Positions 10,351-49,676 of a stretch of 64,000 bases of DNA are shown piece after piece (position 1 is the stretch's first letter; each line of letters begins with the position of its first letter). A program made the translations under genes and the position numbers. This stretch comes from an uncultured bacterium (GTDB lineage: Bacteria > Bacteroidota > Ignavibacteria > OLB7), in contig CBHYLN010000005.1 in assembly GCA_966128725.1 (NCBI GenBank), positions 6,576 through 70,575 of the forward strand, written 5' to 3'. The notes beneath the pieces are model-generated. The model searched no databases, was not told the origin of the DNA, and worked only from the letters and a program-made list of their open reading frames with translations.

Positions 10351-11115
10351 CTACTGCGCCACGTAACCGCCATCAACCAGCATCGCGTGCCCGGTCACGA
10401 ACGACGCCGCATCCGAACACAGCCATACAACGGCCTCGGCAATCTCCTGAGGCGTCCCCATTCGCTTCATCGGATGCAGGCCGGTCACGAAATCGTAGAT
10501 GGGATTCCCTTCCACGATGCCCGCATGCTCCAGCATCGGCGTGGCTATAAACGCGGGGCACACGGCATTCACCCGGATGCCCTGCGTTGCGTACTCGATA
10601 GCGCTCACCTTGGTAAGCCCCACCAGCCCATGTTTGGCGGCCACATAGGCCGGCGCATTGGCGAACCCCACGTGCCCCAGTATCGACGCCATGTTCACGA
10701 TCGCCCCGCCGCCGCCAGCAAGCATCGCCGGTATCTGATACTTCATGCACAACCACACACCGGTAAGGTTCACGTCGATCACACGCTGCCAGGCGGCGAT
10801 GGGGTAGTCGGCCGTTGTCGCCGATTCGCCCGCGATGCCCGCGTTGTTGCACGCAAAATCCAGACGGCCATAGGTTGCAACCGCGGCATTCACCAGTGCT
10901 TCAACATCGGCGGGATTGGCGACGTCGCAGTGCACGAACGTTGCCCGGCCGCCGGCCTCGGCAACACGGCGCACGGTTTCGTTGCCCTCGGTTTCCTGGA
11001 TGTCGGCGACGATCACGGCGGCGCCACGCGCGGCAAATGCCAGCGCGCACGCACGACCGATGCCGGTGCCAGCACCGGTAACAATCGCAACACGGTTCTC
11101 GAATTCAAGGCTCAT
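10351..11115 (-). CDS. Short-chain dehydrogenase/reductase (classical SDR)
   Basis: Start chosen at MSLEFENRVAIVTGAGTGIGRA (TGxxxGxG), with the catalytic 'YVAAKHG' (YxxxK). The longer track ORF (to 11319) would overlap ppsA. Confidence 0.85.
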   Translation of the reverse strand: MSLEFENRVAIVTGAGTGIGRACALAFAARGAAVIVADIQETEGNETVRRVAEAGGRATFVHCDVANPADVEALVNAAVATYGRLDFACNNAGIAGESATTADYPIAAWQRVIDVNLTGVWLCMKYQIPAMLAGGGGAIVNMASILGHVGFANAPAYVAAKHGLVGLTKVSAIEYATQGIRVNAVCPAFIATPMLEHAGIVEGNPIYDFVTGLHPMKRMGTPQEIAEAVVWLCSDAASFVTGHAMLVDGGYVAQ

Positions 11116-11161
11116 GATTACTTCTCCTGAACAACATTCATGATGAAAGGGCAACGCGGGT

Positions 11162-13585
11162 TTACGGCATTGTTGCCGAAGCCCCCGCACCTCGTGATTC
11201 GGCCTCGGACACAATGCGATGCATCCGGACAACGGCGTCGGGATTAAGCGAGATGGACGTAATGCCCTGCTCAACCAGCCAGGCCGCGAACTCCGGATAG
11301 TCCGAGGGCGCCTGCCCACATATGCCGATCGGTTTGCCCGCGCGGTGCGCCGCCGCGATCGCCTGGGCGATCATCGCCATCACGGCCGGGTCGCGCTCGT
11401 CGAACAGGTGCGCAACCGTGCCGGAGTCGCGATCGATGCCCAGCACCAACTGCGTAAGATCGTTCGAGCCGATCGAATACCCGTCGAACACCCGCAGGAA
11501 TGCGTCGGCATTCATCACGTTCGAGGGCAGCTCGCACATGGCGTAAATCTCCAGCCCGTTGTGGCCCTGGCGCAGCCCATGCCCTGCCATGGTTGCAATC
11601 ACGCGCTCGGCCTCGGCCACCGTGCGGCAGAACGGGATCATCACCTTCACGTTGACAAGGCCCATCTGCTCGCGCACGCGAAGCAACGCCGCGCACTCCA
11701 GCGCGAACCCCTCGGCGTATCGCTCATCGTAATACCTGGAAGCGCCCCGGAACCCCAGCATCGGGTTTTCCTCGGACGGCTCGAACTCCGCGCCCCCAAG
11801 CAACCTGGCGTATTCGTTGGTCTTGAAATCGCTTGTGCGCACAATCACCGGGCGCGGGAAAAACGCCGCGGCGATACGGGCCACCCCCTCGGCAAGCCGC
11901 CGCACGAAATACTCGGCCGGTTGTTCGGTACCGATACGCTCGGCGATCGCGGCAACCGCTTCGGGGCTGGCCAGCGCGGGGTAGCGCACCAGCGCCATCG
12001 GGTGCATGCCGATCTGGTTGTTGACAATAAACTCAAGGCGCGCCAGGCCAACACCGGCGTTCGGCAGGGCCGCATGCGCAAACGCCTTGGCCGGGTCGCC
12101 CACGTTCAGCATCACCGCCGTGCGCGTGGGCGCCAGTTCGCCAACACCAACGCTCTCCACATGGAACGGGATTTCGCCCGCGTATACATGCCCCTCGTTC
12201 CCCTCGGCGCAGCATACCGTTACCATGGCGCCCTCGACAAGCGATTCGGTTGCATTGCCGGTACCAACAATGCAGGGCAGGCCCAGCTCGCGCGAAACAA
12301 TGGCCGCATGCGCGGTACGCCCGCCCTCGTTGGTGACGATGGCGGCAACCCGCTTCATCACGGGTTCCCAATCGGGATCGGTAATGCGCGCCACAAGGAT
12401 GTCGCCCGGCTGCACGCGCGCCAGATCACGGGCCTCGCGAACGATGCGCACCGGGCCGGCGGCAATCTTCTCGCCCACCGCCTGCCCCCTGGCCAGCACT
12501 TCCCCGCCGGGTACATCAAGGTGGTACGTAACCGCCACCGCCGACGCCGGCCGCGCGGAGTGGACCGTCTCCGGCCGCGCCTGCACAATCGCCAGCTCGC
12601 CGGTTACGCCGTCCTTCGCCCATTCGATATCCATCGGCTGCGGATGCCCGGCCAGCCGCGAATAATGCTCCTCGATACGCACCGCCCAACGCGCCAGCGC
12701 CAGCACATCGTCGTCGGCAAGCGAGTAGCGGGCGCGATCGGCCGCGCTTGTGGGCTGCTCCACGGTGCCGCCATCCTCGGCATAAGCGGCGCGCACCTCC
12801 TTGGTGCCCAGGCGTCGCGCGATGATCGGCATGGGCGCGGTGGCAAGCGTGGGCTTGAACACGCTCCATTCATCGGGCGATACGCTGCCGCGAACAACCG
12901 GTTCGCCCAGCCCCCACGTGCCGCTTACCACAACCAGATCGCGCACGCCCGATTCGGGATCAAGCGTGAAGATCACACCGGCGCTCCCTTCGTTGGCGCG
13001 CACCATCGGCTGCACCCCAACCGAAAGCGCCACGCTCATCTGGTTGTATCCATGCCGCGCACGATAATCGATGGCCCGATCGGTGAACAACGAGGCATAA
13101 CACTCGCTCACCGCGGCAAGCAATCCCTGCTCGCCGCGCACATTCAGCACGGTGGCATGCTGGCCGGCGAACGATGCGCCGGGCAGGTCCTCCGCCGTCG
13201 CCGACGATCGCACGGCAAGCTCGGCATCGCGACCCAGACGATCGCGCAGCCGGCCGTATGCCAGCAGGATCGCCGCGGCAACGTCATCGGGCAACGGCGT
13301 TTCGGCAACCATCGCGCGCGCGGCGGCCCCGCGCGCGGCCAGGTCGGCAATGTTCCCCGTATCAAGCCCGGCCAGCAATTCTTCCAACCGCGAGCCCAGC
13401 GCGCCTTCCTCCAGCAGCCGATGATAGGCGGCCGTGGTAGTGGCAAACCCATCCAGCGCCCGGACACCCGTGCCGGCAAGCGCGTTATACATCTCCCCCA
13501 GCGACGCGTTCTTGCCGCCCACGCGCGGCACGTCGTTCATCGAAATCGAGTCGAAGTCCAGAACGTATGCGCCACTGTTGCCCAT
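11162..13585 (-). CDS. ppsA: Phosphoenolpyruvate synthase
   Basis: 'MNDVPRVGGKNASLGEM', the phospho-His motif 'GGRTAHAAIVSRELGLPCIVG' and a C-terminal PEP-utilising TIM domain. The ATG at 13585 has a GAGGTG RBS; the track uses the GTG at 13594. Confidence 0.9.
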   Translation of the reverse strand: MGNSGAYVLDFDSISMNDVPRVGGKNASLGEMYNALAGTGVRALDGFATTTAAYHRLLEEGALGSRLEELLAGLDTGNIADLAARGAAARAMVAETPLPDDVAAAILLAYGRLRDRLGRDAELAVRSSATAEDLPGASFAGQHATVLNVRGEQGLLAAVSECYASLFTDRAIDYRARHGYNQMSVALSVGVQPMVRANEGSAGVIFTLDPESGVRDLVVVSGTWGLGEPVVRGSVSPDEWSVFKPTLATAPMPIIARRLGTKEVRAAYAEDGGTVEQPTSAADRARYSLADDDVLALARWAVRIEEHYSRLAGHPQPMDIEWAKDGVTGELAIVQARPETVHSARPASAVAVTYHLDVPGGEVLARGQAVGEKIAAGPVRIVREARDLARVQPGDILVARITDPDWEPVMKRVAAIVTNEGGRTAHAAIVSRELGLPCIVGTGNATESLVEGAMVTVCCAEGNEGHVYAGEIPFHVESVGVGELAPTRTAVMLNVGDPAKAFAHAALPNAGVGLARLEFIVNNQIGMHPMALVRYPALASPEAVAAIAERIGTEQPAEYFVRRLAEGVARIAAAFFPRPVIVRTSDFKTNEYARLLGGAEFEPSEENPMLGFRGASRYYDERYAEGFALECAALLRVREQMGLVNVKVMIPFCRTVAEAERVIATMAGHGLRQGHNGLEIYAMCELPSNVMNADAFLRVFDGYSIGSNDLTQLVLGIDRDSGTVAHLFDERDPAVMAMIAQAIAAAHRAGKPIGICGQAPSDYPEFAAWLVEQGITSISLNPDAVVRMHRIVSEAESRGAGASATMP

Positions 13586-13803
13586 GTCATTCACCTCGTT
13601 TGGTTCGCGGCATATCCCTCGTTATTAACGTAGTGGAACGCGCGGGTGCCGTCCATGATGTACATCATGGTTTTGTGATCATTACATGCGTGTGTGGGGG
13701 ATAACGCCATCATTCGGCGGAAACGGAGGCGGGGCACTTGTTCCGATGCGAACGCATCAGGGGATATGCGCTCGCCGCCCTCATCGCCGCTGTATCGAAA
13801 CAC

Positions 13804-14790
13804 TCACAGATACTGGGCCAGATTGGCGCGATAGTACTCAACCGTGCGGCGCAACCCTTCGGCCAGATGCACGCGCGGCGCCACGCCGAGCATGTCGCGG
13901 ATGCGCCTGTCGTCGGCATAATAATCGCCGATATCGATGCGGCGCCTGTCCTCCGGGAACGCACGCAACACAAACTCGCCGCCGCCGGCAGCTGCAACAA
14001 CCATCTCGGCCAGCTCGCGAAGGCTTACCGGCCGTTCGCCACCAAGATTGAACACCTCACCGGCGGCGCGCTCGTGGACCGCGGCGGCAAGCAGGGCATC
14101 AACGGCGTCGTCAACGTAGGTGAAGTCGCGAAGCTGATCGCCCTCCCACACCTCGAACGGCATGCCCTGCACGGCCAGGCGCACCCACACACCCAGGAAC
14201 GTCTGGCGGGCGTCCTTCACGCGCATCCGCGGGCCATACGTGTTGGTAAGGCGCAGCGAGCACGAGCTGATGCCGTACACGTTGTTGTACAGGATGTGGT
14301 ACCACTCGCCGGCCATCTTGTTGATGCCGTTCACATCCACCGGGCGCAGGATGTGGCGTTCGTCCACCGGCAGGTAATCGGGCCGGCCGTACAACTGGCG
14401 CGTGCTGGCGAACACGATCCGGATACCGGGATTGTATCGCCGGCATGTCTCCAGGATGGAAAGCTGCGCGCGGCAATTGATGTCCAGATCGGTGAACGGA
14501 TCGGCCATGGAATCCATGTGGCTTGTCTGGCCGGCCAGGTTGAACAGGTAGTCGCGCCCCTGCACCAGATACCGCATGGAGTGCTCGTCGCGCACATCCG
14601 AAATGTTCACCGTAACGCGCCCTTGCAGGCCATCGATGTTGAACAGATTGCCGCCGTACTCGGGGATCAGGCTGTCCACCAGCAGAACATCGGCGCCGGC
14701 ATCGGCAAGCCTCGCGGCCAGATTGGAGCCGATGAAACCCAGGCCGCCGGTGATAAGCACGCGCGCGCCGTTGAACGATGTATCAGCCAT
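13804..14790 (-). CDS. NAD-dependent epimerase/dehydratase (extended SDR)
   Basis: Start at MADTSFNGARVLITGGLGFIGSN, with 'YGINKMAGE'-type YxxxK. It overlaps the upstream stop by 8 nt. The longer track ORF (to 14994) lies inside the neighbouring gene. Confidence 0.85.
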   Translation of the reverse strand: MADTSFNGARVLITGGLGFIGSNLAARLADAGADVLLVDSLIPEYGGNLFNIDGLQGRVTVNISDVRDEHSMRYLVQGRDYLFNLAGQTSHMDSMADPFTDLDINCRAQLSILETCRRYNPGIRIVFASTRQLYGRPDYLPVDERHILRPVDVNGINKMAGEWYHILYNNVYGISSCSLRLTNTYGPRMRVKDARQTFLGVWVRLAVQGMPFEVWEGDQLRDFTYVDDAVDALLAAAVHERAAGEVFNLGGERPVSLRELAEMVVAAAGGGEFVLRAFPEDRRRIDIGDYYADDRRIRDMLGVAPRVHLAEGLRRTVEYYRANLAQYL

Positions 14791-16051
14791 TGGCTTCTCC
14801 GGTTGCAGCAACGGTGCCGGGGTTGCCCAGCGGTTTGCGGATTTCCTGCCACATGAACGCCAGCATGAACACCACCCACACCGCCGACAGCAGCACGGCC
14901 GAATCCAACACGCCCACCGCACGGCTGAACGGCGGGCCGTTGCCATCGATGCCGTAGAACAGGTACAGGTTGATGTTGGTGAACAACACCACAAACGCGG
15001 AGATCACCGCATAACGGCTGTTGGCCAGATAGATAAGGATGGCGACGATGCCGGCCAGGTACAGGTGATTTTCGTGTACGCCGATGTTGAACGTGAAGTA
15101 CGAGAGGAATCCCAGCAACGCCGTGACCATCAGATTCTCGAAGGTCTTCTGGCGCCGTACGGCCAGCCACAGCGCGGCCAGATACGACGCGCCGAACAAC
15201 GCACGCGAGACCCACGTGATCACCGGCCCGGCCTTGCTGATATACCGTGCAAGGCCATCGTTCAGCGGCGCGTATTGTTCCGGCGCAACCAGGTGCAGCA
15301 CGTACGTCACGATCCAGTTCAGGTTCAGCGCGTTCGCGCTGGGATAGCGGTGCGACATCGCCCGCACAAACGCGCGGGCAATCTCCACGCCATAAATCGA
15401 GAACAGGATGCCAACTATCACGGCGCTTGGCAGAACAACCTGCATCAGAAAGCGCCGCCAGTTCGCCGTCCGAATGCTCGCAAACGAGTTGATCTCCAGC
15501 AGGTGGATGCACATGAACGGCAGCAGCAACACCGACTGCCACTTGATCATGAAGCTGATGGTGTACAGGATTGAGAACGCCGTGAACTTTCGCCTGCTCA
15601 GCATCAGCATCGCCAGCACGAACGTTGGCGTGAAATAGGCATCCAGATACCCGAGCGCCACGCTGTTCAACGTCAGCGCCAGATGCACACATGCGGTAAG
15701 CACCAGGTTGCGTGTGTAGGCGTAGATGGCCGCCGAGGTCAGGAACAGGAACAACACCAACGACCACTTGATGCCAGCGAATATGTCGCCGCCGAACATC
15801 GCCGAGATCTTGGAGCTGGCAAACAGCATGAAGATGGAGATCGGCGGATAATCCCCCTTGTCGGCCGGGTATCCCTGCACCACCCCATACTCGTGGGCAT
15901 TCTTGATCCACGTGGTCCAGATCCCCACATCACCGGTGCCGGGCGAGTTCACGAACGTCAGCGAGAAGACGGCGATCAGAGCAAAGAGCAGCACGGCCCA
16001 GATCGTGGTCCGATTGGTTGCTCCGCCGATTTGTTCAGTGTATGGATTCAT
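14783..16051 (-). CDS. Polytopic membrane protein, probable GT-C-fold glycosyltransferase (DUF2029/GT87-like)
   Basis: About 10 predicted hydrophobic helices. The first periplasmic-loop-type motif is 'GYPADKGDYPPISIF'. It sits next to a polyprenol-P GT2. The ATG at 16051 has an AAGGA RBS. Confidence 0.6.
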   Translation of the reverse strand: MNPYTEQIGGATNRTTIWAVLLFALIAVFSLTFVNSPGTGDVGIWTTWIKNAHEYGVVQGYPADKGDYPPISIFMLFASSKISAMFGGDIFAGIKWSLVLFLFLTSAAIYAYTRNLVLTACVHLALTLNSVALGYLDAYFTPTFVLAMLMLSRRKFTAFSILYTISFMIKWQSVLLLPFMCIHLLEINSFASIRTANWRRFLMQVVLPSAVIVGILFSIYGVEIARAFVRAMSHRYPSANALNLNWIVTYVLHLVAPEQYAPLNDGLARYISKAGPVITWVSRALFGASYLAALWLAVRRQKTFENLMVTALLGFLSYFTFNIGVHENHLYLAGIVAILIYLANSRYAVISAFVVLFTNINLYLFYGIDGNGPPFSRAVGVLDSAVLLSAVWVVFMLAFMWQEIRKPLGNPGTVAATGEANG

Positions 16052-16230
16052 CCGGGCATCCTTGAGCAATCTTCCCAGTCAGTCTGCTGAAATACTTCCG
16101 TTCGATGTTGTCCATCAGGAGGCATAGACAAGCGTGCTGACCAAAGCGTAGCAGAGCCGGCGTGGTACGTTCACGGTGTCGCCTGGTAAGCGGGACATTG
16201 AACAACTCCGAAAGAGCGCCATCGTCAGGC

Positions 16231-16751
16231 CCTCCTACGGAGGCCTATCCACAAGCCCCGGCAGGGGGCGAACCGTCTGTAGAAACCCGGGCACACAACC
16301 ATCAACAAGCCCCGGCAGGGGCGAACCCTACAGCCGCAATTCACGGCACGCTCCGATGGAGCTTCTATTCGCTTCGAGAACATCTCTGCTACAGACAGGT
16401 GCCTCCTCGGAGGCCTATCCACAAGCCCCGTCAGGGGCGAACCGTCTGTAGAAACCCGGGTACACAACCATCCACAAGCCCCGTCAGGGGCGAACCGTAT
16501 GGCCGCAATTCACGGCACGCTCCGATGGAGCTTCATTCCGCTGCCGGAGCATTTCTGCTACAGACAGGGGCCTCCTACGGAGGCCTATCCACAAGCCCCG
16601 GCAGGTACGAACCGTCTGTAGGAACCCGGGCACACAACCATCAACAAGCCCCGGCAGGGGCGAACCGTACGGCCGCAACTCACGGCACGCTCCGATGGAG
16701 CTTCGATCCACTTGACGTGCATCTCTGCTACAGACAGGTGCCTCCTGACGG
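16231..16751. repeat. Tandem array: 3 full copies plus an 11-nt stub of a 170-nt non-coding unit
   Basis: The anchor 'aggcctatcc' recurs at 16241, 16411 and 16581, and a fourth unit begins at 16741. Identity is above 90% outside a 15-nt block. The period is not divisible by 3. Confidence 0.9.
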
Positions 16752-16845
16752 GCACACCGATTTGTCGAAGCGCGCGTTACCACCCTGTCAGACTGTTGAA
16801 CTCATCGGGGCCAGCGGTCTCCCGGCGCGGAGGCACACCAGGCTC

Positions 16846-17640
16846 TCAGTTGCGCTTGCGCGAGCGATGGTAATCGCCCTTCGAGAGCTGTTTCTCCAGC
16901 CAGGCGTACAGCACGATGAAGAGATATCGGCTCCCCATCTCCTTCAACTTCAACTTCGATTCGCCGGTTGTGCGATTGGTCCACGAGATTGGAAGCTTCG
17001 CGAATGTATAGCCGCGCACGATGGCCTTCAGCGGTAGCTCCACGGTCAGGTTGAAGTGCGCCGAGAGCAGCGGCTGCACACCATCGATCACCTCGCGCCG
17101 ATAACACTTGAAAGCGTTGGTGATATCGTTATGGTCTATCCGGAACAGGACCTTGATGAACCAGTTGGCGAGGCGATTGATCGCCAGCTTGTGTTTCGGA
17201 TAATCGATCACCCTGGCGCCGGCCACAAATCGCGAGCCGAACACGCACTCGTACCCTTCCTGGATCTTCCGGTAATAGGCAACGATATCATCCGGAGCGT
17301 CGGAGAGATCGGCCATCACAATGCAGACGGCATCGCCGCGGAAACTCTCCAGCCCCTTGCGCACGGCAAACCCGAAGCCATGCGGCGGCGTGTTGTTCAC
17401 GTATCGGAACGATGGGTACCGCGCGGCAAGGCTGCGCAGAATGGCCTCGGTGCCGTCGCTGCTGTTATCGTTCACCACAACGATCTCGGCGTCGGCGATG
17501 CCCTCCTCCTCGAACTTCCGAAGGATGGCCGTGCAGGTGCGCTCCACGCCGCCCTCCTCGTTGTGGGCGGGGATCACCACGGAGAACCGTACGGCCGAGT
17601 ACGGCCCGCCCTCGGCAATCTGGCTGGCGCTCAGGTCCAT
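16846..17640 (-). CDS. GT2 polyprenol-phosphate glycosyltransferase (Dpm1/ArnC/GtrB-like)
   Basis: '[21 protein letters not shown]', '[11 protein letters not shown]' and '[10 protein letters not shown]' are typical of Und-P/Dol-P sugar synthases. Confidence 0.85.
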
Positions 17641-18695
17641 CGGCTCCTGTTGCCGTCGTGTATCTCAACCAGGATATCGCGCACGTTGCGCGTAAGGCTC
17701 CAATCCGGGAAGTGGCCCTGAAACTTGGCCACGTCGCTCACCCACCAGATGTGATCGCCCACACGATTGTCGGCCACGTACGTGGTGTTCATCCGGTTAC
17801 CGGAGATTTCCTCGCACATGGCAATCGCCTCCAGCATCGAGCAGTTGCTGAATCGCGCGCCGCCGATGTTGTAGGCCTCGCCCGGGCGTGGGTTGCGCGC
17901 GAAATGATCGAACGCGTTCACCAGATCGGTGGAGTGGATGTTGTCGCGGACCTGCTTTCCCTTGTAGCCGAATATCCTGTACTCGCGCCCGGTGATCGCG
18001 CACTTCATCAGATAGGCCAGGAACCCGTGCAGCTCGGCGCCGGAATGGTTGGGGCCGCTGAGGCAGCCGCCACGGAACACGCCGGTTTTCATACCGAAGT
18101 ATCGGCCGTACTCCTGCACCATCACATCGGCCGCCACCTTCGAGGCGCCGAACAGCGAGTGCTTGCTGTTGTCGATCGACATCGTTTCATCGATGCCACG
18201 CTCGAAATACGGATGCGTTTCGGCAACCTCCCAACGGGTTTCCAGCTCCAGCAACGGAAGCGCGTTGGGCGTGTCGCCGTACACCTTGTTGGTGGATGTG
18301 AAGATGAACACCGCGTCCGGCGCATGCAGGCGTGTGGCCTCAAGCATGTTCATCGTCCCCACCGCGTTGACACCAAAATCGGTAAGCGGCTCGCGCGCGG
18401 CCCAATCGTGCGAAGGCTGCGCGGCGGTATGGATCACCAGTTCGATCTGGCCGGCATGTTCGGCAAACACGCGGTTGATCGCGTCAAGGTCGCGTATGTC
18501 GGCATCGATGTTCCGGAAATCAGGGAACTGCGAACGCAGCGCATCCAGAGTCCACCGTGTCGAGGCTTCCTCGCCAAAGAAATACCGGCGCATGTCGTTG
18601 TCGATACCAACCACGTTCATCCCCTTGGCGCAGTAGTATCGCACCGCTTCCGAGCCAATCAGGCCCGCGGCTCCGGTAATGATCGCTGTTCCCAT
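17631..18695 (-). CDS. NAD-dependent epimerase/dehydratase (CDP-paratose-2-epimerase-like)
   Basis: '[18 protein letters not shown]' and '[16 protein letters not shown]' (YxxxK region). It overlaps the downstream GT2 start by 10 nt. Confidence 0.85.
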
Positions 18696-39032: not shown

Positions 39033-39114
<82 letters not shown>

Positions 39115-39199
39115 CAATCATTGCCCGGTAGTCACGCGCGAAGGTGATTGCCATTGCATGCCGGCCCGGAAGTTCCGCACGGCATGCGCGCCGACATTC

Positions 39200-39240
39200 A
39201 AACGCCCGGCCGGTGTTGCCGCATGGGCGTTTGTTGTTGC
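39200..39240 (+). terminator. Hairpin + G/T-rich tail downstream of tRNA-Leu
   Basis: aaacgccc...gggcgttt stem followed by gttgttgc. Confidence 0.4.
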
Positions 39241-39355
39241 AGGGGCAGTGAAACGATCTGGCAATTCGTTGCCGCCGGCTGCACGCGCTACGGCGGCGCG
39301 CAGATCACACGTTGTTCTTTGTTGTTGTTTCAGAACGAGCATATCGCACAGCAGA

Positions 39356-40750
39356 ATGGAATCCACGATCCGTCAGACCAACTCAATCAAGTTTGAGCTC
39401 GATGTCGCGCTTACACCCGCCGAGCTCACCCCATATCTCGATTCGGCCTATCGCGAAGCGCAGAAGCATGCATCATTGAAGGGCTTCCGCAAGGGTAAGG
39501 TTCCGATCGGCATGATCAAGAAGCTCTACGGGCAATCGTTGGAGCGCGAAGCCTACGAGGAGGCCGTGCAGCAGGAATTCGCGCGTGCGATGCAGACTCA
39601 GGATGTACAGCCGGTTGGCTCGCCCGCGATCACCAAGCTGGACCGCACCGACGACGGCGGGCTTTCCTTCACCGTGGCCTACGAGACGCTGCCCAAGGTG
39701 GAGCTGACCGATTACAAGGGGCTGCCGGCCCGCAAGGTGTTCCATGTGATCACCGACGAAGAGTTCGAGGCCGAGATGGCGCGCATTCGCGAGTCGAACG
39801 CCACGCAGGAGGATGAGCCGGCCGAATCCGTTGCCGACGAGAACCACATCGTGAAGGTGAATCTCCAGAAGCTGGAGGCCGGCGTGGTGGTGGAGGAAAA
39901 CGTGATGAGCGACATGCCGGTATACCTTGCGCGGCACGACGTCAACCCCGAGCTGAAGGCGATGCTGCTGAACACGAAGGTTGGCGACACCTTCCGTATC
40001 GACCTGCCCACCGGCGAGGACGCCACGATGATCAACTACGAGGTGACCGTGCGCGAGATCCACCGCATGGCGCTGCCGGAGCTGGACGACGCGTTCGCCG
40101 CGCAGTTGATGGGCCGTGAGGACGCCACCGTCGCCGACCTGCAGGATGCCGTACGTCAGGGAATCATGGGCGAATACGAGCGCCGTTTCTCCGGGTTCTT
40201 CCGCGATGAACTGATCAACGCGCTTATCGAGCGCCACCCGTTCGATGTCCCCGATGTGTTCGTGGCCGAGGTCATGAAGTCCTTCGTGGACGACATGCGC
40301 CGCGGCCCGAAGAAGGAGTTGCCGAAGGATTTCGACGGCGAGCGCTTCGTTCGCGAAATGCGCCCCACCGCCGAACGCACGGCCAAGTGGGCGATCCTGC
40401 GCGACCTCATCATCGAGAAGGAAGGGCTGACGCCGGAAGAGAGCGATTACGAAGGCCTGGCCGATATCGAGGCGCAGCGCACCGGCATCGACTACGACAC
40501 GCTGATCGGGTACTTCAAGAAGTCCGACAAGATCCGCGATCGGATTGTGGCCGAGAAGGCCGTGCAGTTGCTTGAGGACTACGCCGTGGTCACCGAGGTC
40601 GAGGATCGCACCATGCCGCAGATGACCGCGCCGGACCATATCGGCCACGATCACTCGGATCACGATCACGCCGATCATGACCATGCCGACCACGATCACT
40701 CGGATCATGATCACGCCGATCACGATCACGCAGGCCACGACCACGCGTAA
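39356..40750 (+). CDS. tig: Trigger factor with a C-terminal His/Asp-repeat tail
   Basis: Start at MESTIRQTNSIKFELDV. The ribosome-binding signature 'GFRKGKVPIGMIKK' is present. The central PPIase-region is followed by the C-terminal arm domain, then the tail HIGHDHSDHDHADHDHADHDHSDHDHADHDHAGHDHA. Confidence 0.9.
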   Translation: MESTIRQTNSIKFELDVALTPAELTPYLDSAYREAQKHASLKGFRKGKVPIGMIKKLYGQSLEREAYEEAVQQEFARAMQTQDVQPVGSPAITKLDRTDDGGLSFTVAYETLPKVELTDYKGLPARKVFHVITDEEFEAEMARIRESNATQEDEPAESVADENHIVKVNLQKLEAGVVVEENVMSDMPVYLARHDVNPELKAMLLNTKVGDTFRIDLPTGEDATMINYEVTVREIHRMALPELDDAFAAQLMGREDATVADLQDAVRQGIMGEYERRFSGFFRDELINALIERHPFDVPDVFVAEVMKSFVDDMRRGPKKELPKDFDGERFVREMRPTAERTAKWAILRDLIIEKEGLTPEESDYEGLADIEAQRTGIDYDTLIGYFKKSDKIRDRIVAEKAVQLLEDYAVVTEVEDRTMPQMTAPDHIGHDHSDHDHADHDHADHDHSDHDHADHDHAGHDHA

Positions 40751-40792: not shown

Positions 40793-40951
40793 GACAACTT
40801 TGCCCGGTTTTAATCGTCAACAGCTCGTAGACAACCGGAGCCCCCGAACTAACAGCGTTGATGCGCGGCGGCTGCTCCACACGGTTCCCTTTGCGGCCAC
40901 GCAATGCCCACGGTGGAACCGATTCACTACGATATCTATCACGGAACGCAC

Positions 40952-41632
40952 ATGATCATTCCACGTATCGTTGAACGGACCGCTCGCGGTGAGGAAGTCT
41001 GGGATCCGTTCAGCCGACTGCTGAAGGAGCGCATCCTGTTTCTGGACGCACCGATCACCGACGAGGTAGCAAGCATCGTTATCGCGTCGATGGTGTTTCT
41101 CGAATCGGAGGATCCGGCGAAGGACATCATCATGTATATCAACTCGCCCGGCGGCTCGGTAAGCGCCGGCATGGCGATCTACGATACAATGCAGTTCATC
41201 CGGCCGGACATCTCCACCATCTGTATCGGCATGGCCGCATCGATGGCACAGGTTCTGCTGTGCGCCGGGGCCAAGGGAAAGCGCATGGCGCTGCCCAACA
41301 GCCGCATCATGATGCACCAGCCGTCGGGCGGCTCGCAGGGGCAGACCACCGAGATCGAGATCTATCTTCGCGAGATGATCAGCCAGCGCGACCAGTTGTA
41401 CAACATCATTTCGGCCCACTCCGGCCAGCCGGTCGAAAAGATCCGCAAGGATGCCGACCGCGATTTCTGGATGTCGCCGAACGATGCGGTGGAATACGGC
41501 CTGATCGACCGCGTGCTTACCAGCCGCAAGGAAGTCAGCAAGAACCTGCCGCAGATGCCCACAACCGGGCTTGACCAGGCGGCCATTGTTGGCTCGGGCT
41601 CGGCTGAAACGGCAAACGTCGAGCAAAAGTAA
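40952..41632 (+). CDS. clpP: ATP-dependent Clp protease proteolytic subunit
   Basis: Start at [31 protein letters not shown]. 'GMAASMA' (Ser) and 'IMMHQP' (His) are present. A C-terminal extension of about 38 aa runs beyond the usual end. Confidence 0.9.
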
Positions 41633-41778: not shown

Positions 41779-43047
41779 ATGGCCAACGACATTCACACTC
41801 TGCCGTCCGATACGGTCCGCTGCTCGTTCTGCGGGCGCACATCCGACGAGGTCACCTCCATCATCGCCGGCCCGAACGTTTACATCTGCGACATCTGCAT
41901 CCAGAACTCCGTGGAGCTTCTCCGGCAGAACGCGCGCCTGTTCCGGCCAACACAGCCCGAACGTCGCCTTACGCCCAGCAGCATCCGAACGGCGCTGGAC
42001 GAATACGTGATCGGGCAGGAGTACGCCAAGAAGGTTCTGGCGGTGGCGGTATACAACCACTACAAGCGCATCGAGTCGCAGGAAACCCTTGCGGGCTTCG
42101 ATGACGTCGAGATCGAGAAGTCGAACATCCTGATGCTGGGCCCCACGGGCGTTGGCAAGACGCTGCTGGCCCAGACGCTTGCACGCCTGCTGGATGTGCC
42201 GTTCGCCATCGCCGACGCCACAACGCTTACCGAGGCCGGCTACGTGGGCGACGATGTGGAAACGATCCTTGTATCGCTGCTGCAGAACGCCGACTACAAC
42301 GTTGAGCGCGCCGAGCGCGGGATCATCTACATCGACGAGGTGGACAAGATCACCCGCAAGAGCGATTCCGCCTCGATCACCCGCGATGTCTCGGGCGAAG
42401 GCGTGCAGCAGGGCTTGTTGAAGATCCTGGAAGGCACGCGCGCCAACGTGCCGCCAAAGGGCGGCCGCAAGCATCCGGAACAGCCGTTGATCCAGATCAA
42501 CACGCGCAACATCCTGTTCATCTGCGGCGGCGCGTTCGAGGGTCTGGAGAAGATCATCGCGCATCGCATGCGCAAGACCTCGATGGGATTCGGCAGCGAG
42601 ATTCAGGATCGCGTGGAGGAGCGCGCCGAGCTGTTCCGTCATGTTGAGCCGGAGGACCTGATCCGCTTCGGGCTGATCCCCGAGCTGATCGGCCGCCTGC
42701 CGGTGATATCCCCGCTGGAACCGTTGTCCGACGAGGCCATGCGCGCCATCCTTACCGCGCCCAAGAATGCGCTTGTGAAGCAGTACCGCAAGCTGATGGC
42801 GATGGAAGGCGTGGAGCTGGAGTTTTCCGAGGATGCGGTGGTCGAGATTATCCGCCGCGCGAAGATCCGCAAAACCGGCGCGCGCGCACTGCGTGGCGTG
42901 ATGGAGGAAGCGATGCTGGAAGTGATGTACGCCCTGCCGGACCGGCCTGGCCTGAAGAAAGTGGTGATCAACGCCGACACCGTTCGCCGCGAAGGCGAGC
43001 CGGAATACGAATACGGCGACACCGAACGCAAGGTTGGGCACGGCTGA
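41779..43047 (+). CDS. clpX: ATP-dependent Clp protease ATPase subunit
   Basis: N-terminal zinc finger 'CSFCGR...YICDICI', Walker A '[11 protein letters not shown]' and '[10 protein letters not shown]'. Confidence 0.95.
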
Positions 43048-44734: not shown

Positions 44735-44834
44735 GGGGTCAAGTCCTGTGCGACCGTGCCATACCCAACCCCGTCAGGTCCGGAAGGAAGCAGCGGTCCG
44801 TATAGGCAGGTGTGACACAGATCAGCTTGACCTC
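44735..44834 (+). ncRNA. ffs: Signal recognition particle RNA (small 4.5S type)
   Basis: Contains the conserved domain IV core 'gtcaggtccggaaggaagcagc'. The 5' ggtcaagt pairs with the 3' agcttgacc, followed by a T8 run. Boundaries are approximate. Confidence 0.8.
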
Positions 44835-45209
44835 TTTTTTTTGTCCATCCCAGTCCACTGTCCGTGGCACTCATCGGCAACGATGTGCCGACGATGCGCT
44901 AGCTAACGGGATTCACCGTGCGCGCGCCCAGAGCCCTTCACCGGCACCGGGTCGCATCGCGCCTAAACCCGTCGCGCGCCAGCGTCGCACCGCCGAGAGG
45001 AAGTTCGCAGCGATGCGTACCCGATCGTACTGCGGGCATCTGATGCCGTGTCCATTCGCAGGACATGCACCTGATGCCCCACAAGGAAAGTTTGTTCTCT
45101 CCTCGCCCGCTTCTCGATTGGCTACGTCCCAACCCTGGTTCTCTCCGCCGCGCATCTCCTCGAACGCCTTCGCTCGTGCCCGCCCGTCCACGGACCCACA
45201 GATCCGTAC

Positions 45210-48200
45210 ATGAAAAAAGATATCATCATCAACGCGACCTCCACGGAGATTCGTGTTGCCATTACCGAGGATGACCGCCTTGCGGAAATCTTCCTCGAAG
45301 TTCCGGACAAAGAGCGCCACGTCGGTTCTATTTATCTCGGTCGGGTCGAACGTGTGGTTCAGGGTATGAACGCCGCCTTCATCGATATCGGAGAACCCCA
45401 GGATGCCTTCCTGCATTTCTCCGACGTCGGCTCGGCGCTCGACGAGTTCAAGGATCTGCTGGACGACCGCGACGATGACGACGACGATGATGCCGATGAG
45501 CAGGACGATGCCGAAACCACTACGGCCGCCGCTTCAAGCACCGAGCGCGGAGGCCGAGGCTCGCAGAAGAGCCGCGGCGGAGCCGAGCGCAAGCACACCG
45601 ATACCACTTCCGATCAATCCGACCAGCCACAGGATACAGCACCCGAACGGCGTGACCGTGGGCGCGGGCGTGACCGCAAATCCGACCGCCGGGGCGGGCA
45701 CGACAACGATGCTCCGCGTGCCGAGCGCGCGCCGGGTAGCGACCTGGAAAGCCGAGCCGATGGCACCGAACGCGACGAACGCCCACGGGAGGACCGCCCC
45801 GAACGCGAGCGCGGCCGGGGTGATCGCCGCGATGGGCAGAGTCGCCGCGACGGGCAGGGCCGCGGAGGCGCTGATCGTGCATCCGACGGCGCACGATCCG
45901 ATGGCCGGCGCGATCAGCGCGCCGATGCCGCAGCGGGCTCGCGCCCGGTGGATGCCGATGCGGACATCGAGGATGTTGATCCCGTGGATGCCGACAATGC
46001 CACGGCCGAAGGCGATCACAACAGCGAAGAAGCTCACCGCAAGCGCCGCCGCAAGCGCGGCCGCCGCGGTGGCCGTGGCCGCAACCGGCGTGGGCGTGAC
46101 GAGGAAGGCGTAGCAGGCGATCGCGACACGACACGTGACGCCGCCGATGATCGAGACACGGACGATCGCGGCGACGATGACATGGATGACGACGATCGGG
46201 ATGCCGAGGCACAGCCCGCCGCGCACCGAGCCGAGGCCCCGCAGCGCGAACATCGCGGCGATCGCAACGATCGGGACAACCGTGGGCGCGGCGGCAATCG
46301 GAACGCGCCGCGCGTACAGGAGGCGCAGGCCGGGCACGACGCCGACGACGATGAACGCGACGACGACATGCCCGAGGGCGATGCTGGAACCGATAATGCC
46401 GGCGAGGGCGTCGACGCCGAAGGCCGTCCACGCCGCCGCAGGCGCCGTGGGCGCCGGGGCGGGCGCAACCGGCGCGAAAACAGCGATGGCGGAAATCGTG
46501 AGAACACCGCCGAGCAGCCGCGTGGCGAGCAAGCGCGTGGCGAGCAATCACGTGGTGAGAACATTCGTTCCGAGCGGACACCGGACCAACGTGGCAACGA
46601 CGCCGGCCGCGGCAACACCGCGCCACCCGATGACCGACGTGGCGAACGGCGCGGCGACGGCGATCGCCGCGATGATAACCGTCGCGGCAACGACCGGCGC
46701 CCGGATGACCGGCGCACCGACGAACGCCGTCCGGAGGGTCGCCCGGAGAGCCGTAGTACCAACGAGCGCCACGCCGACGATCGGGAAGGCCAGCGCCAGC
46801 ACGGCAACGAACGGAGCGCAGGCGGCGCACGGACCGAACAACCCAGAACCGAGCAGCCCCGAGCCGAACACCCGCGAGCCAATGATCGCGGGCACGGCGG
46901 ACGCCGGGACGAACGACGGGATGATACGCGAGGCACCGCGCCGGAAACCCCGGCAGCACCTCGTGCCGAGGCAGTGGCACCGAACGACGATGTAGCGGGC
47001 GCCGATCGTCCGGCAGGCGGCCGCAAGGCACGCCCGTCACGGCGCAAGCCGGCCGAGGACACACCATCGCTCTTCCCCGCCGACGAACCGCACCAGGCCG
47101 CCGAACCGGCCGCAACGCCACCCCCCAAGCCGAAGCGCGCCTCGACACGCAAGGCGCCGGCCGCCGCGAAGGACACTCCGCCTCCGGGCGAGACCCCGGC
47201 CAATCCAGCAGGCAAGCCCAGCCGGCGAGGCAAACCCGCCGGACGGCGCGGAGGTCGCGACGGGGATTCCGACGCACCGATCAAGGGCTCCACGGCCGAC
47301 GCGAAGCTCCCGACGTTTCAAACGAAGCGCTCGGGTGAGGTAACCATCGCGCTGGAGAAGGGCCAGGACGTGATCGTGCAGGTAACACGCGAATCGTACG
47401 CCTCGAAGGGTGTGCGTGTTACCACCAAGGTGAGCCTGCCCGGGCGATTCCTGGTGCTGCTGCCGCTGGACCCCGCGATCGGCATTTCGCGCAAGGTGCA
47501 GAACATGAAGGAGCGCCGCCGCCTGCGCCGCATCGCACGCGGCATCCTTCCGGAAGGGCATGGCTGCATCATCCGTACGGTTGCGCAGGACAAGGAAGAA
47601 GCCGTGATCCGCCAGGATCTGATGAAGCTCATCGAAAACTGGCGCGAGATCGAGCAGAAGCTGAAGGATACCAACGCCCCTTCCCTGCTGTACAAGGATC
47701 AGTCGATTGCCGCAACGGTGATGCGCGATCTGTTCACGCCCGACACAAACCGCGTGGTGATCGACAACAAGGCCCTGTATACCGAGATCCGCGACTACGT
47801 GGAGTGGGCCGCGCCCGGCCTTGCCGACAAGGTGGAGCTGTACACGGGAAGCCGTCCGATCTTCGACGAGTACGGCATGGAACGCGAGATGCAGAAGATC
47901 GCCGAGCGCCGCGTGTACATCCCGTCCGGCGGCTACATCATCCTGGACCAAACCGAGGCCATGATGGTGATCGACGTCAACTCCGGCCGATATGCGGGCA
48001 AGAAGGATCAGGAACTGAACTCGCTGCGAACCAACCTGGAGTCGGCACGCGAAATCGCCCGCCAGATTCGGCTTCGCGATATCGGCGGGTTGATCGTGAT
48101 CGACTTTATCGACCTGTACGACGAGAAGAACCGGAAGAAGGTCTACGACGAACTGAAGAAGGAAATGCGGCGCGACCGGGCCAAATCCGTGGTGCTGCCC

Positions 48201-49676
48201 ATGACCCAGTTCGGCCTGGTGCAGATGACACGCCAGCGCATCCGCCAGCAGGTTGTGCAGACGATGTCGGAGCCATGTCCCGTGTGCGCCGGCAGCGGCC
48301 TGGTGCAATCGCGCAGCACCGTCGCACGCAACATCGAGCGCTGGTTGCAGCGCTTCCGCGAGGGTTCGCGCGAGTTCCGCCTTACGCTCTCGGCACATCC
48401 TCACGTCATCAACTATCTCTCCGAAGGCGCCAACAGCAGGCTGACGGCGATGATGATGAAGTACTTCGTGCGCCTGAAGGTTGTGCCCGATGAATCGCTG
48501 ATGGTGTCGGAGTTCCATTTCTTCTCCACGCACCACCAGGCCGATATCACCGAGAAATATCTGGAGGATATCGCCGCACGCAAGCGCGAGGAAAAGGCCG
48601 CCAAGCGGCTCGAGGCCAAGCGCAAGGACGAACAGAAGAAGGGCGATGACGAGCGCGATGCCGCGGCCGGCCCACAGAAGCGCGGACCACGCCGGGATGA
48701 TCGCCGTGGCGGTGAGGAACGCAGAAGCGATGACCGCAGGGCCGATGGACGCCGTGGCGAGGAGCGCCGTGGTGAAGAACGCCGGAGTGACGATCGTCGT
48801 GGTGAAGAGCGTCGTGGCGACGATCGCCGGAGCGAGGAGCCTCGGAAGGATCGGCCCGACCGCAGGGACGGACGCCGCCCGAACGACAGGACGGGCGCGC
48901 GCCAGGGGGACCGCCGACCCCAGCACGCCGAGCCAACCGAAGCAGCCGATGCTTCGGCACGCTCGCAGCAACCAGCGGCACAGGACGCCAATGGGCAGCC
49001 AGCCGAGGGCGGCCGTCCGGCTTCCAGCGGTCGCCGTGGCAGCCGTGGTGGGCGCGGGCGCGATAACCGCCGAGGTGGCCGCGGCCGCGATGAACATGCA
49101 AGCGGCGAGCCAAGGGGCACACAGGCACCGCAAACCAATGCGGCCGATGTGCCCGCGCAAACCGATCGCCCCGAACGGGCGGATGCCGGAAGCGGCGCCG
49201 AGAAGCGACCCGATCGCAGCAGGCCGGCGCGTGGACGCGATCGCGCCGTCACCGAAAGCGGTGGCGAACCCTCGGCACGCGGAACGGCCAGGCCCGATGT
49301 TCGCCGGGAGGCCCCGACCGAACGGACCACCATCGAGCGTCCGGTAGCGGAGCAGCCCGCCGAGGCCGCCGCAAGCGCCCCCAAGAAGCGTGCGGGCAGC
49401 CGTAGTACCAAGAAGGCCGCCACACCCGATCGGGAGGCACCGGCAGCCGCCGAAGCCGCCCCGCCGGCCAAGAAACGCGCCGCACCGCGACGCACGGCCG
49501 AACCGGAAACCGGCGCCGCAACCGTGGCCGAGAAACCCAAGCGCGCATCACGGGCAAAGAAGAAGCCCGAGACGGACGCACCGGCAGGGGCTGCCGCCAC
49601 CGGCGGCGGCGAAAAGCCCGCCCCGGCAAAGGCACGCCGGGGAAGCACCCGTGGCCGGTCGGCCCCGGAGGAATAA
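45210..49676 (+). CDS. rne: Ribonuclease E/G family endoribonuclease with very large low-complexity regions
   Basis: The N-terminus has 'MKKDIIINATSTEIRVAITEDDRLAEIF...GSIYLGRVERVVQGMNAAFIDIG' (S1 start). The core resumes at 'EKGQDVIVQVTRESYASKGVRVTTKVSLPGRFLVLLP'. It also has 'YIILDQTEAMMVIDVNSG' and the Zn-link 'CPVCAGSG'. R/D/E/G-rich tracts fill the rest. Confidence 0.85.
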   Translation: MKKDIIINATSTEIRVAITEDDRLAEIFLEVPDKERHVGSIYLGRVERVVQGMNAAFIDIGEPQDAFLHFSDVGSALDEFKDLLDDRDDDDDDDADEQDDAETTTAAASSTERGGRGSQKSRGGAERKHTDTTSDQSDQPQDTAPERRDRGRGRDRKSDRRGGHDNDAPRAERAPGSDLESRADGTERDERPREDRPERERGRGDRRDGQSRRDGQGRGGADRASDGARSDGRRDQRADAAAGSRPVDADADIEDVDPVDADNATAEGDHNSEEAHRKRRRKRGRRGGRGRNRRGRDEEGVAGDRDTTRDAADDRDTDDRGDDDMDDDDRDAEAQPAAHRAEAPQREHRGDRNDRDNRGRGGNRNAPRVQEAQAGHDADDDERDDDMPEGDAGTDNAGEGVDAEGRPRRRRRRGRRGGRNRRENSDGGNRENTAEQPRGEQARGEQSRGENIRSERTPDQRGNDAGRGNTAPPDDRRGERRGDGDRRDDNRRGNDRRPDDRRTDERRPEGRPESRSTNERHADDREGQRQHGNERSAGGARTEQPRTEQPRAEHPRANDRGHGGRRDERRDDTRGTAPETPAAPRAEAVAPNDDVAGADRPAGGRKARPSRRKPAEDTPSLFPADEPHQAAEPAATPPPKPKRASTRKAPAAAKDTPPPGETPANPAGKPSRRGKPAGRRGGRDGDSDAPIKGSTADAKLPTFQTKRSGEVTIALEKGQDVIVQVTRESYASKGVRVTTKVSLPGRFLVLLPLDPAIGISRKVQNMKERRRLRRIARGILPEGHGCIIRTVAQDKEEAVIRQDLMKLIENWREIEQKLKDTNAPSLLYKDQSIAATVMRDLFTPDTNRVVIDNKALYTEIRDYVEWAAPGLADKVELYTGSRPIFDEYGMEREMQKIAERRVYIPSGGYIILDQTEAMMVIDVNSGRYAGKKDQELNSLRTNLESAREIARQIRLRDIGGLIVIDFIDLYDEKNRKKVYDELKKEMRRDRAKSVVLPMTQFGLVQMTRQRIRQQVVQTMSEPCPVCAGSGLVQSRSTVARNIERWLQRFREGSREFRLTLSAHPHVINYLSEGANSRLTAMMMKYFVRLKVVPDESLMVSEFHFFSTHHQADITEKYLEDIAARKREEKAAKRLEAKRKDEQKKGDDERDAAAGPQKRGPRRDDRRGGEERRSDDRRADGRRGEERRGEERRSDDRRGEERRGDDRRSEEPRKDRPDRRDGRRPNDRTGARQGDRRPQHAEPTEAADASARSQQPAAQDANGQPAEGGRPASSGRRGSRGGRGRDNRRGGRGRDEHASGEPRGTQAPQTNAADVPAQTDRPERADAGSGAEKRPDRSRPARGRDRAVTESGGEPSARGTARPDVRREAPTERTTIERPVAEQPAEAAASAPKKRAGSRSTKKAATPDREAPAAAEAAPPAKKRAAPRRTAEPETGAATVAEKPKRASRAKKKPETDAPAGAAATGGGEKPAPAKARRGSTRGRSAPEE

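Follow-up and report, generated by a model that had tools for sequence, protein, structure and literature searches.

The array and its genomic setting

The window (the whole 64-kb stretch of DNA analysed) contains one tandem array, at 16231-16751, with a period of 170, 3.1 copies and 88% matches according to TRF. The array occupies a 795-nt gap (16052-16845) flanked by minus-strand genes, inside a ~38-kb cluster for glycan synthesis on the same strand. The features of the locus are listed in Table 1. The main open reading frames (ORFs) scanned between ~1 and 39 kb are minus-strand genes of glycan synthesis, among them those for aminotransferases, epimerases/dehydratases, methyltransferases, glycosyltransferases and a Wzm/Wzt-type ABC exporter. 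The two exceptions among them are a PEP synthase (11162-13594) and a short-chain dehydrogenase of the enoyl-ACP-reductase type (10351-11319). None of these main ORFs, across the ~1-39 kb scanned, matched a nuclease, recombinase, Cas, Tas, TnpB or reverse-transcriptase family.

The source is a soil or wastewater bacterium from a very poorly sampled lineage. The closest homologue of the 422-aa protein encoded beside the array is only 49% identical. Similarly, ClpX (41779-43047), ClpP (40904-41632), RseP and RNase E are each alone in their 90%-identity cluster, among ~15 billion proteins. GC content falls to 56-61% over the array and the gene on each side (14800-17400), compared with 64-70% at 12-13.5 kb and 20-21 kb; a local drop of this sort is as expected of a recombining or exchanged segment in a glycan cluster.

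Table 1. Features of the array and its surroundings (positions are those of the window)
Feature	Position	Strand	Remarks
Downstream gene, 422-aa membrane protein	14783..16051	-	no Pfam match; some homologues named Gpi18-like or ALG6/ALG8 glycosyltransferase
Degenerate inverted partial unit, left flank	16109..16156	.	from inverted-repeat search; kept in L008
291-aa ORF through whole array, into antisense of the family-2 glycosyltransferase (GT2) gene	16162-17037	+	predicted protein P0121; P0122 in L008
Whole array: opening hairpin H1 and three units, each closed by an H1-type hairpin	16228..16758	.	from TRF, alignment and motif coordinates
Unit 1	16246..16415	.	170 nt; block allele A
Unit 2	16416..16585	.	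170 nt; block allele B; both H2 loops GTCA
Unit 3	16586..16758	.	block allele C; first H2 degenerate (GGTAC); terminal variant hairpin at end
Nested 53-nt module, unit 1	16275..16327	.	GTCTGTAG...GGGGCGAACC; duplicates H2
Nested 53-nt module, unit 2	16444..16496	.	
Nested 53-nt module, unit 3	16614..16666	.	
Conserved box 1, 18 nt	16517..16534 (unit 2); also 16348-16365, 16687-16704	.	ACGCTCCGATGGAGCTTC; contains H4
Conserved box 2, 36 nt	16550..16585 (unit 2); also 16381-16415, 16720-16758	.	CATyTCTGCTACAGACAGG with H5, then H1
Variable block, allele A	16366..16380	.	TATTCGCTTCGAGAA
Variable block, allele B	16535..16549	.	ATTCCGCTGCCGGAG
Variable block, allele C	16705..16719	.	GATCCACTTGACGTG
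CCGGCAG sites complementary to block B	16257-16263, 16311-17, 16650-56		
Upstream gene, family-2 glycosyltransferase	16846..17640	-	

The three tandem units, of ~170 nt, are ~95% alike outside one 15-nt block. We took each unit to end in hairpin H1, which gives an opening H1 and then three full units. The core unit, of 117 nt, is a chain of short GC-rich hairpins, in the order H2, H3, H4, variable segment, H5 and H1. In the full unit, a 53-nt module that repeats H2 is placed between the first H2 and H3. The hairpins are H1 (GGCCTCC-TAC-GGAGGCC), H2 (GCCCC-GNCA-GGGGC), H3 (GCCG-CAAyTCA-CGGC), H4 (GCTCC-GAT-GGAGC) and H5 (TCTG-CTA-CAGA). All five are present in nearly every unit, the two degenerate copies being the first H2 of unit 3 (H2a) and the H3 of unit 1. 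The last unit closes with the variant hairpin GGTGCCTCCTGACGGGCACACC. H1 is followed by the next unit after only 10 nt. Each unit also has an invariant linker (CAUCUCUGCUACAGACAGG) and one long-range inverted repeat, an 8-nt pair (CTACAGAC/GTCTGTAG), which is the sole such repeat inside a unit. Box 1 is identical in all units, and the best-conserved stretch of the family consists of ACGCTCCGATGGAGCTTC, the variable segment, CATCTCTGCTACAGACAGG and H1.

The flanking motifs of the array are confined to it within the 64 kb, where 0 are expected by chance, and no diverged further copy of the unit was found in the window by nhmmer with the unit as query. The partial unit in the left flank has GGAGGCA within 16112-16124 and GTAGCAGAG at 16148-16156; it matches the CTCTGCTAC...TGCCTCC part of the unit in reverse complement. 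Whichever strand is transcribed, this inverted partial unit could base-pair with any of the array units. In Rfam, the whole window yields only the small SRP RNA (44737-44835) and tRNA-Leu (39033-39115) at the gathering threshold. A permissive scan of 15000-18000 returned only DUF3800-III, for unit 2 alone, at 18.8 bits (threshold 43.8, E = 0.97).

Could the array be coding? The repeat might specify a repetitive protein, or small peptides, with the block supplying five variable residues. The 291-aa ORF, which public collections hold as a predicted protein, speaks for this, as does an ATG on the minus strand (the conserved CAT) directly before each 15-nt block. However, neither the 170-nt period nor the 53-nt module keeps successive units in the same frame, some blocks are 16 or 17 nt long, and between them the period, module and 15-17-nt blocks break every reading frame. 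The minus-strand peptides end variably (22-52 aa) and their start is lost in allele F. The 291-aa ORF extends antisense into the GT2 gene and, in HMMER searches of 1.84 billion representative proteins, the only homologues were the ORF itself and its copy in L008, the equivalent locus of a related strain. The ORF is almost certainly a spurious gene call, and coding of a protein or peptides by the repeat is next to inconceivable.

Confinement of variation to one block

According to the first-pass annotation, divergence between the three units is concentrated in a 15-nt block with about 5 of 15 columns invariant. The blocks are where that annotation placed them (Table 1), and exactly 5/15 columns are invariant among the three window units. 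A protein search, with the translation of the spurious plus-strand ORF through the array, led to L008, the syntenic locus in a related strain whose flanks are 98.4-98.5% identical. Its array consists of two 117-nt units, lacking the 53-nt module, with block B followed by block A'. The block of unit 1 is identical to window allele B, and A', in unit 2, is allele A with 2 changes. Columns of the 117-nt core were counted over the three window units and the two of L008, all five complete. Within the block, 10/15 columns are variable, compared with 10/85 outside (Fisher p = 1.9e-5). Moreover, the most variable 15-nt interval is exactly the block (10 variable columns) and the next best, non-overlapping, interval has 4. 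The annotation had proposed collecting more copies, or an orthologous array, as a check. Since L008 and copies at other loci still vary mainly in the block segment, the architecture of a conserved scaffold plus a variable segment survives that check. The feature is real, the variable segment is truly confined, and this is not due to chance.

In comparisons of orthologous units, changes affect 14/90 block sites and 39/611 scaffold sites (odds ratio 2.7, p = 0.005). The rate of change in the block is raised, but this is not hypermutation. Simple neutral decay does not account for a variable segment so sharply bounded by near-invariant boxes. Scaffolds differ at 3/85 positions within a genome (l1-l2 and w1-w3, 3/85 each) and at 6/85 across strains in units sharing block B (w2-l1). 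Because scaffolds tend to be closer within a genome than between block-B units, we suggest that the scaffold is homogenised around persistent blocks. Block B itself is 0/15 different in the two strains whose scaffolds differ at 6/85. Its identity despite this scaffold divergence hints at selection on the block, which counts against the reading favoured below.

Each block was also said to form a small local hairpin. The three hairpins are present as sequence but are marginal, at 0 to -4 kcal/mol on the plus strand, and no better than shuffles. Most alleles can form a hairpin of 3-5 bp; local folding of the 14 alleles, on both strands, does not differ significantly overall from that of shuffles. 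The block might be a functional stem-loop held by compensatory substitutions, with its sequence free and its structure constrained. A 4-bp helix can be drawn between block positions 3-6 and 11-14; 73% of cells pair, with G-C, G-U and one A-U double change. In addition, an unrelated 23-nt segment in some copies at other loci (G-type) folds into a 5-bp hairpin of -7.5 kcal/mol, with 2.8% of shuffles as good. However, the helix was fitted by hand, alleles C and D need another register, and the covariation score of the block was reached by 71/500 shuffles. RNAalifold predicted only H4 and H5, and no block helix. Mean local folding energy on the plus strand is -2.4 kcal/mol, against -1.7 for shuffles, and allele A' breaks the stem that the annotation had drawn for A. 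We consider a stem maintained in this way unlikely.

Two short complementarities link blocks to H2. The 3' half of block B, CTGCCGG (16541-16547), complements CCGGCAG, which is the 5' arm and loop of the GGCA-loop H2 of units 1 and 3. Similarly, CTTGACG in block C (16712-16718) complements CGTCAGG of the GTCA-loop H2 in unit 2 (16429-35, 16482-88). Kissing loops, between block B CUGC and H2 GGCA(G), or block C UGAC and H2 GUCA, were rejected, since in 11 units from several strains the loop type does not follow the block type.

Variation between strains and loci

At least six array layouts occur among the other relatives, and even at ~98% identity, strains have arrays of different copy number, unit type and block order. 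Units of L008 have no 53-nt module, those of the window have one, and X24 and X11 have units with two. Units range from 117 to 223 nt and the whole unit is found in tandem ~1-3 times at the locus. In Logan contigs, arrays are one unit shorter in X1, X18 and X9, and joints also show 117-nt units. The unit next to the right flank varies by strain, its block being C, C', C'', B, A' or a chimera of C and A'. Note that allele sequences from public runs are reconstructions from difference tables, rather than printed contigs. Accordingly read, a contig of run X3 has no listed block difference from window allele B, and an RNA-seq contig of X24 has none from window allele C. Variants C' and C'' were found in seven runs.

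The scaffold also exists elsewhere. Several contigs of X3, X13, X17, X11 and X5 match 16505-16585/91 and then continue into unlike DNA. These other-locus contigs stem from organisms coded A and B, of which there are isolates, and from soil metagenomes. Their blocks are D, D', E, F, F' and the 23-nt G-type segment, which has three variants; one G-type unit is ~229 nt downstream of another unit. Since such contigs carry the scaffold with further blocks, it forms a small multi-locus family in the lineage. The copies keep box 1 and their match ends just after H1 (16585 or 16591). In the other direction, ~22 nt further 5', they are ~64% identical to the window. The boxes are near-invariant in copies ~35% diverged just upstream; this is more sequence constraint than a purely structural or selfish repeat would lead one to expect, and counts against the reading favoured below. 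Run X3 has at least five scaffold copies, on short contigs, at three or more loci; the 64-kb window has no other. Neither terminal inverted repeats of >8 nt nor target-site duplications were seen, in flanks that are known for <=30 nt around the other copies.

Wider searches returned little. Among species-representative genomes, a set apparently lacking the window's own genome, a 21-mer of H2 hit four loci, none with the unit. In JGI metagenome contigs, a 24-mer gave 0 matches and a gapped flank pattern gave one chance match, in eukaryote-like DNA (L007). The 422-aa protein has its closest homologues at 49% and 46% identity; their orthologous loci have no array, and a concatenated minus-strand query found nothing in a protein search.

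Altogether, 14 block alleles were collected and each has a neighbour at 1-4 edits. One is a chimera, with its 5' half from C and its 3' half from A'. Positions 3, 5 and 8 of the block are constant, and its six 5' bases (wATyCG) are partly conserved. The variable segment is 15-23 nt long. The same alleles recur across strains and runs, in different order. Given this network of 1-4 edits, chimera included, the alleles look mutated and recombined rather than acquired. The pattern fits mutation plus recombination and not the uptake of foreign spacers.

These data bear on the idea that the array encodes CRISPR- or TIGR-like guides, with the 102-155-nt scaffold as the repeat and the 15-nt block as a spacer directing an effector to foreign nucleic acid. 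A conserved repeat with a confined variable segment is confirmed, and array content does differ between strains. However, blocks that are 1-4 edits apart, with a semi-conserved 5' half, are not independent acquisitions. Furthermore, many strains and runs share alleles, other loci have copies too, and no main ORF scanned within ~15 kb matches a Cas, Tas (Nop-domain), TnpB, IscB or reverse-transcriptase family. The annotation had suggested looking for the 15-mers in phage and plasmid DNA; phage and plasmid collections gave no match. Exact 15-mer searches of IMG/VR gave 36 matches for C and 96 for B, compared with 16 and 30 for the reversed controls (a 2-3x excess), as single matches on different contigs; we do not see a convincing enrichment in this. 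The scaffold pattern is absent from viral contigs, and matches of >=12 nt to a block are lacking in the rest of the window. We regard guides as very improbable. The first-pass annotation had likened the architecture, as a suggestion only, to that of guide or specificity-bearing RNAs or of a compensatory stem; the confined segment holds, but guides are not supported and the stem has no statistical support.

CRISPR arrays have repeats of ~23-50 nt, unrelated spacers of similar length, and adjacent cas genes or spacers that match mobile elements. Like CRISPR and TIGR arrays, ours has tandem conserved repeats, short variable segments and strain-variable content. Unlike CRISPR, the conserved part is 102-155 nt, the variable part is 15-23 nt, and the variable parts are mutational relatives. 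Unlike both systems, no leader polarity or protospacers were seen, and no cas or tas (Nop-domain) gene is among the scanned neighbouring ORFs. TIGR-Tas loci have short units with two spacers beside a Nop-domain Tas gene (PMC12385481). Our array differs, with one variable segment per 117-170-nt unit. Type III toxin-antitoxin arrays of the ToxI kind have ~36-nt units beside a toxin gene. Type I Sib/QUAD repeats are opposite a conserved small toxin ORF, and their variable patches give cognate specificity. Both ToxI and Sib resemble the array in being tandem non-coding repeats; unlike them, it has no toxin gene or conserved small ORF. A diversity-generating retroelement, in which template and variable repeat differ specifically at adenines, was also rejected, given that substitutions involve all four bases and that no reverse transcriptase is encoded among the scanned window ORFs.

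Transcription and interpretation

The X24 metatranscriptome contains a 175-nt contig of the array at a depth of 19.8 (a single contig, unstranded, with DNA carry-over possible). For comparison, an epimerase gene 2 kb away has a depth of 22.3 and other genes of the same organism are at 8-15. This fits co-transcription of the array with the gene cluster, and gives no sign of a separate abundant small RNA. A search of the array for a sigma-70-like promoter gave none, for a consensus that may not be of the host's type. A U-tract after H1 is absent and terminator-like hairpins are weak on both strands. A promoter reading of the two boxes (ECF-like GGAGCTT...TCTG) was rejected by inspection; the spacing, of 20-22 nt, is too long and the boxes are far longer than hexamers.

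Folding was compared with shuffles for each strand; z is -3.6 on the plus strand and -2.4 on the minus strand, from 20 shuffles only. Single changes that keep G-U pairs on the plus strand only are 16516 C>T (H3), 16555 C>T (H5) and T4/T11 of the block. Those that do so on the minus strand only are in H2 of L008 unit 2, in H4 (16352) and in H5 (16394). Since such changes occur in both senses, the strand signal is mixed.

Could the units be sibling small RNAs? They would probably be on the plus strand, and either cut from a common transcript or ending at H1. The boxes would then serve a shared function (protein binding, stability or a common seed) and the block would specify a different partner for each paralogue, comparable to btuB for the centre of OmrA. 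The OmrA and OmrB RNAs have near-identical ends and a divergent centre, with the centre of OmrA providing the paralogue-specific target btuB (PMC12692685). Our units are alike in being adjacent paralogues with near-identical ends and a divergent central segment, and such conserved ends around a divergent centre match the OmrA/OmrB pattern (PMC12692685). Blocks persist as alleles across strains, and conservation at other loci stops at, or just after, the 3' side of H1. The better folding of the plus strand, the G-U pairs kept there in H3, H5 and the block, and the presence of array sequence in an RNA-seq library all point the same way. However, there is no promoter-like site, nor a U-tract after H1, and only 10 nt lie between H1 and the next unit. 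Other changes keep G-U pairs on the minus strand only, depth in the RNA library equals that of the neighbouring gene and is not above it, and sites complementary to the blocks, in the 64 kb, are not beyond chance. Unlike OmrA/OmrB, no promoters, U-tract terminators or targets were found, the units are 10 nt apart, and copy number is unstable between strains. Sibling small RNAs are the main rival to the reading favoured below, though rather improbable.

A more specific proposal is that the units are a new family of trans-acting RNAs, in which the 15-23-nt segment, set between two invariant boxes that bind protein or structure, is an address for an RNA target or cognate protein specific to each paralogue. 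We think this quite doubtful. If true, strains would recombine a limited set of addresses within a surface-glycan locus, and a block acting as specificity determinant would define a new class of paralogue-specific RNAs.

The reading that we favour, and to which we give about an even chance, is that the array is a lineage-specific, modular, structured intergenic repeat of the BOX/MIRU kind, transcribed within the glycan cluster, with the block as a poorly constrained spacer or weak stem-loop. The array would be transcribed together with the minus-strand glycan genes. Unequal recombination and gene conversion between units would expand, contract and reshuffle it, while function and homogenisation would keep the two boxes (18 and 36 nt) near-invariant. 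The 15-23-nt segment between them would be a tolerated spacer, perhaps forming a weak stem-loop, that may look hypervariable because of ~2.4x more changes per site and mixing by recombination. The likely effect is that of a structured intercistronic RNA, modulating read-through, processing or stability. Relative expression of the flanking genes would be altered as a result, and differently by strain.

BOX elements are modular, with a variable count of tandem boxB, and are transcribed with predicted stem-loops (PMC3049150). In the BOX of Streptococcus pneumoniae (boxA-boxB(n)-boxC), as in our array, an inner module is present in variable tandem count (here the 53-nt module, 0-2). Both are also found at several loci, vary in length between strains, have predicted stem-loops, are transcribed and contain spurious ORFs (PMC3049150). 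Unlike BOX, the array has the whole composite unit in tandem too, and there is no sequence similarity between the two. Its sharply bounded variable segment is not a described feature of BOX, and the ~five copies per genome visible in run X3 are far fewer than in BOX or REP families. The MIRUs of mycobacteria are tandem units, of tens to ~100 bp, between genes of one operon and at several loci. Their copy number differs between strains, and short ORFs within them couple translation of the genes on either side. The array is MIRU-like in having tandem intergenic units, several loci and strain-variable copy number. Unlike MIRUs, the units are longer (117-223 nt), nested and dominated by hairpins, and translation-coupling ORFs were not seen.

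If the BOX/MIRU-like reading is right, the repeat family is previously undescribed, while the kind of object is known and ordinary, in an unusual lineage. The array would then be a highly polymorphic strain marker and a likely point of expression control, or of recombination, in a surface-polysaccharide cluster. It would also explain a spurious 291-aa 'protein' in public collections.

Some further repeats are worth recording. H2 with its flanks (CAAGCCCCGTCAGGGGCGAAC) occurs ~5 times, in both orientations and within 900 nt, at 2470-3350 of L003, from a Planctomycetota MAG, among other GC-rich palindromes. Single copies of H2 with flanks are in three unrelated MAGs (L001, L002 and L004). The recurring hairpin may be a widespread REP-like hairpin or a case of convergence. 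Elsewhere in the window, the plus strand encodes a 1488-aa RNase E/G homologue (45210-49676), whose catalytic domain starts at ~residue 707, and 15/30-nt tandem repeats are found in the 3' part of its gene (48749-48840). Tandem repeats with a 15/45-nt period (40634-40746) are also at the 3' end of the trigger-factor ORF (39158-40750), and would imply a repetitive C-terminal tail.
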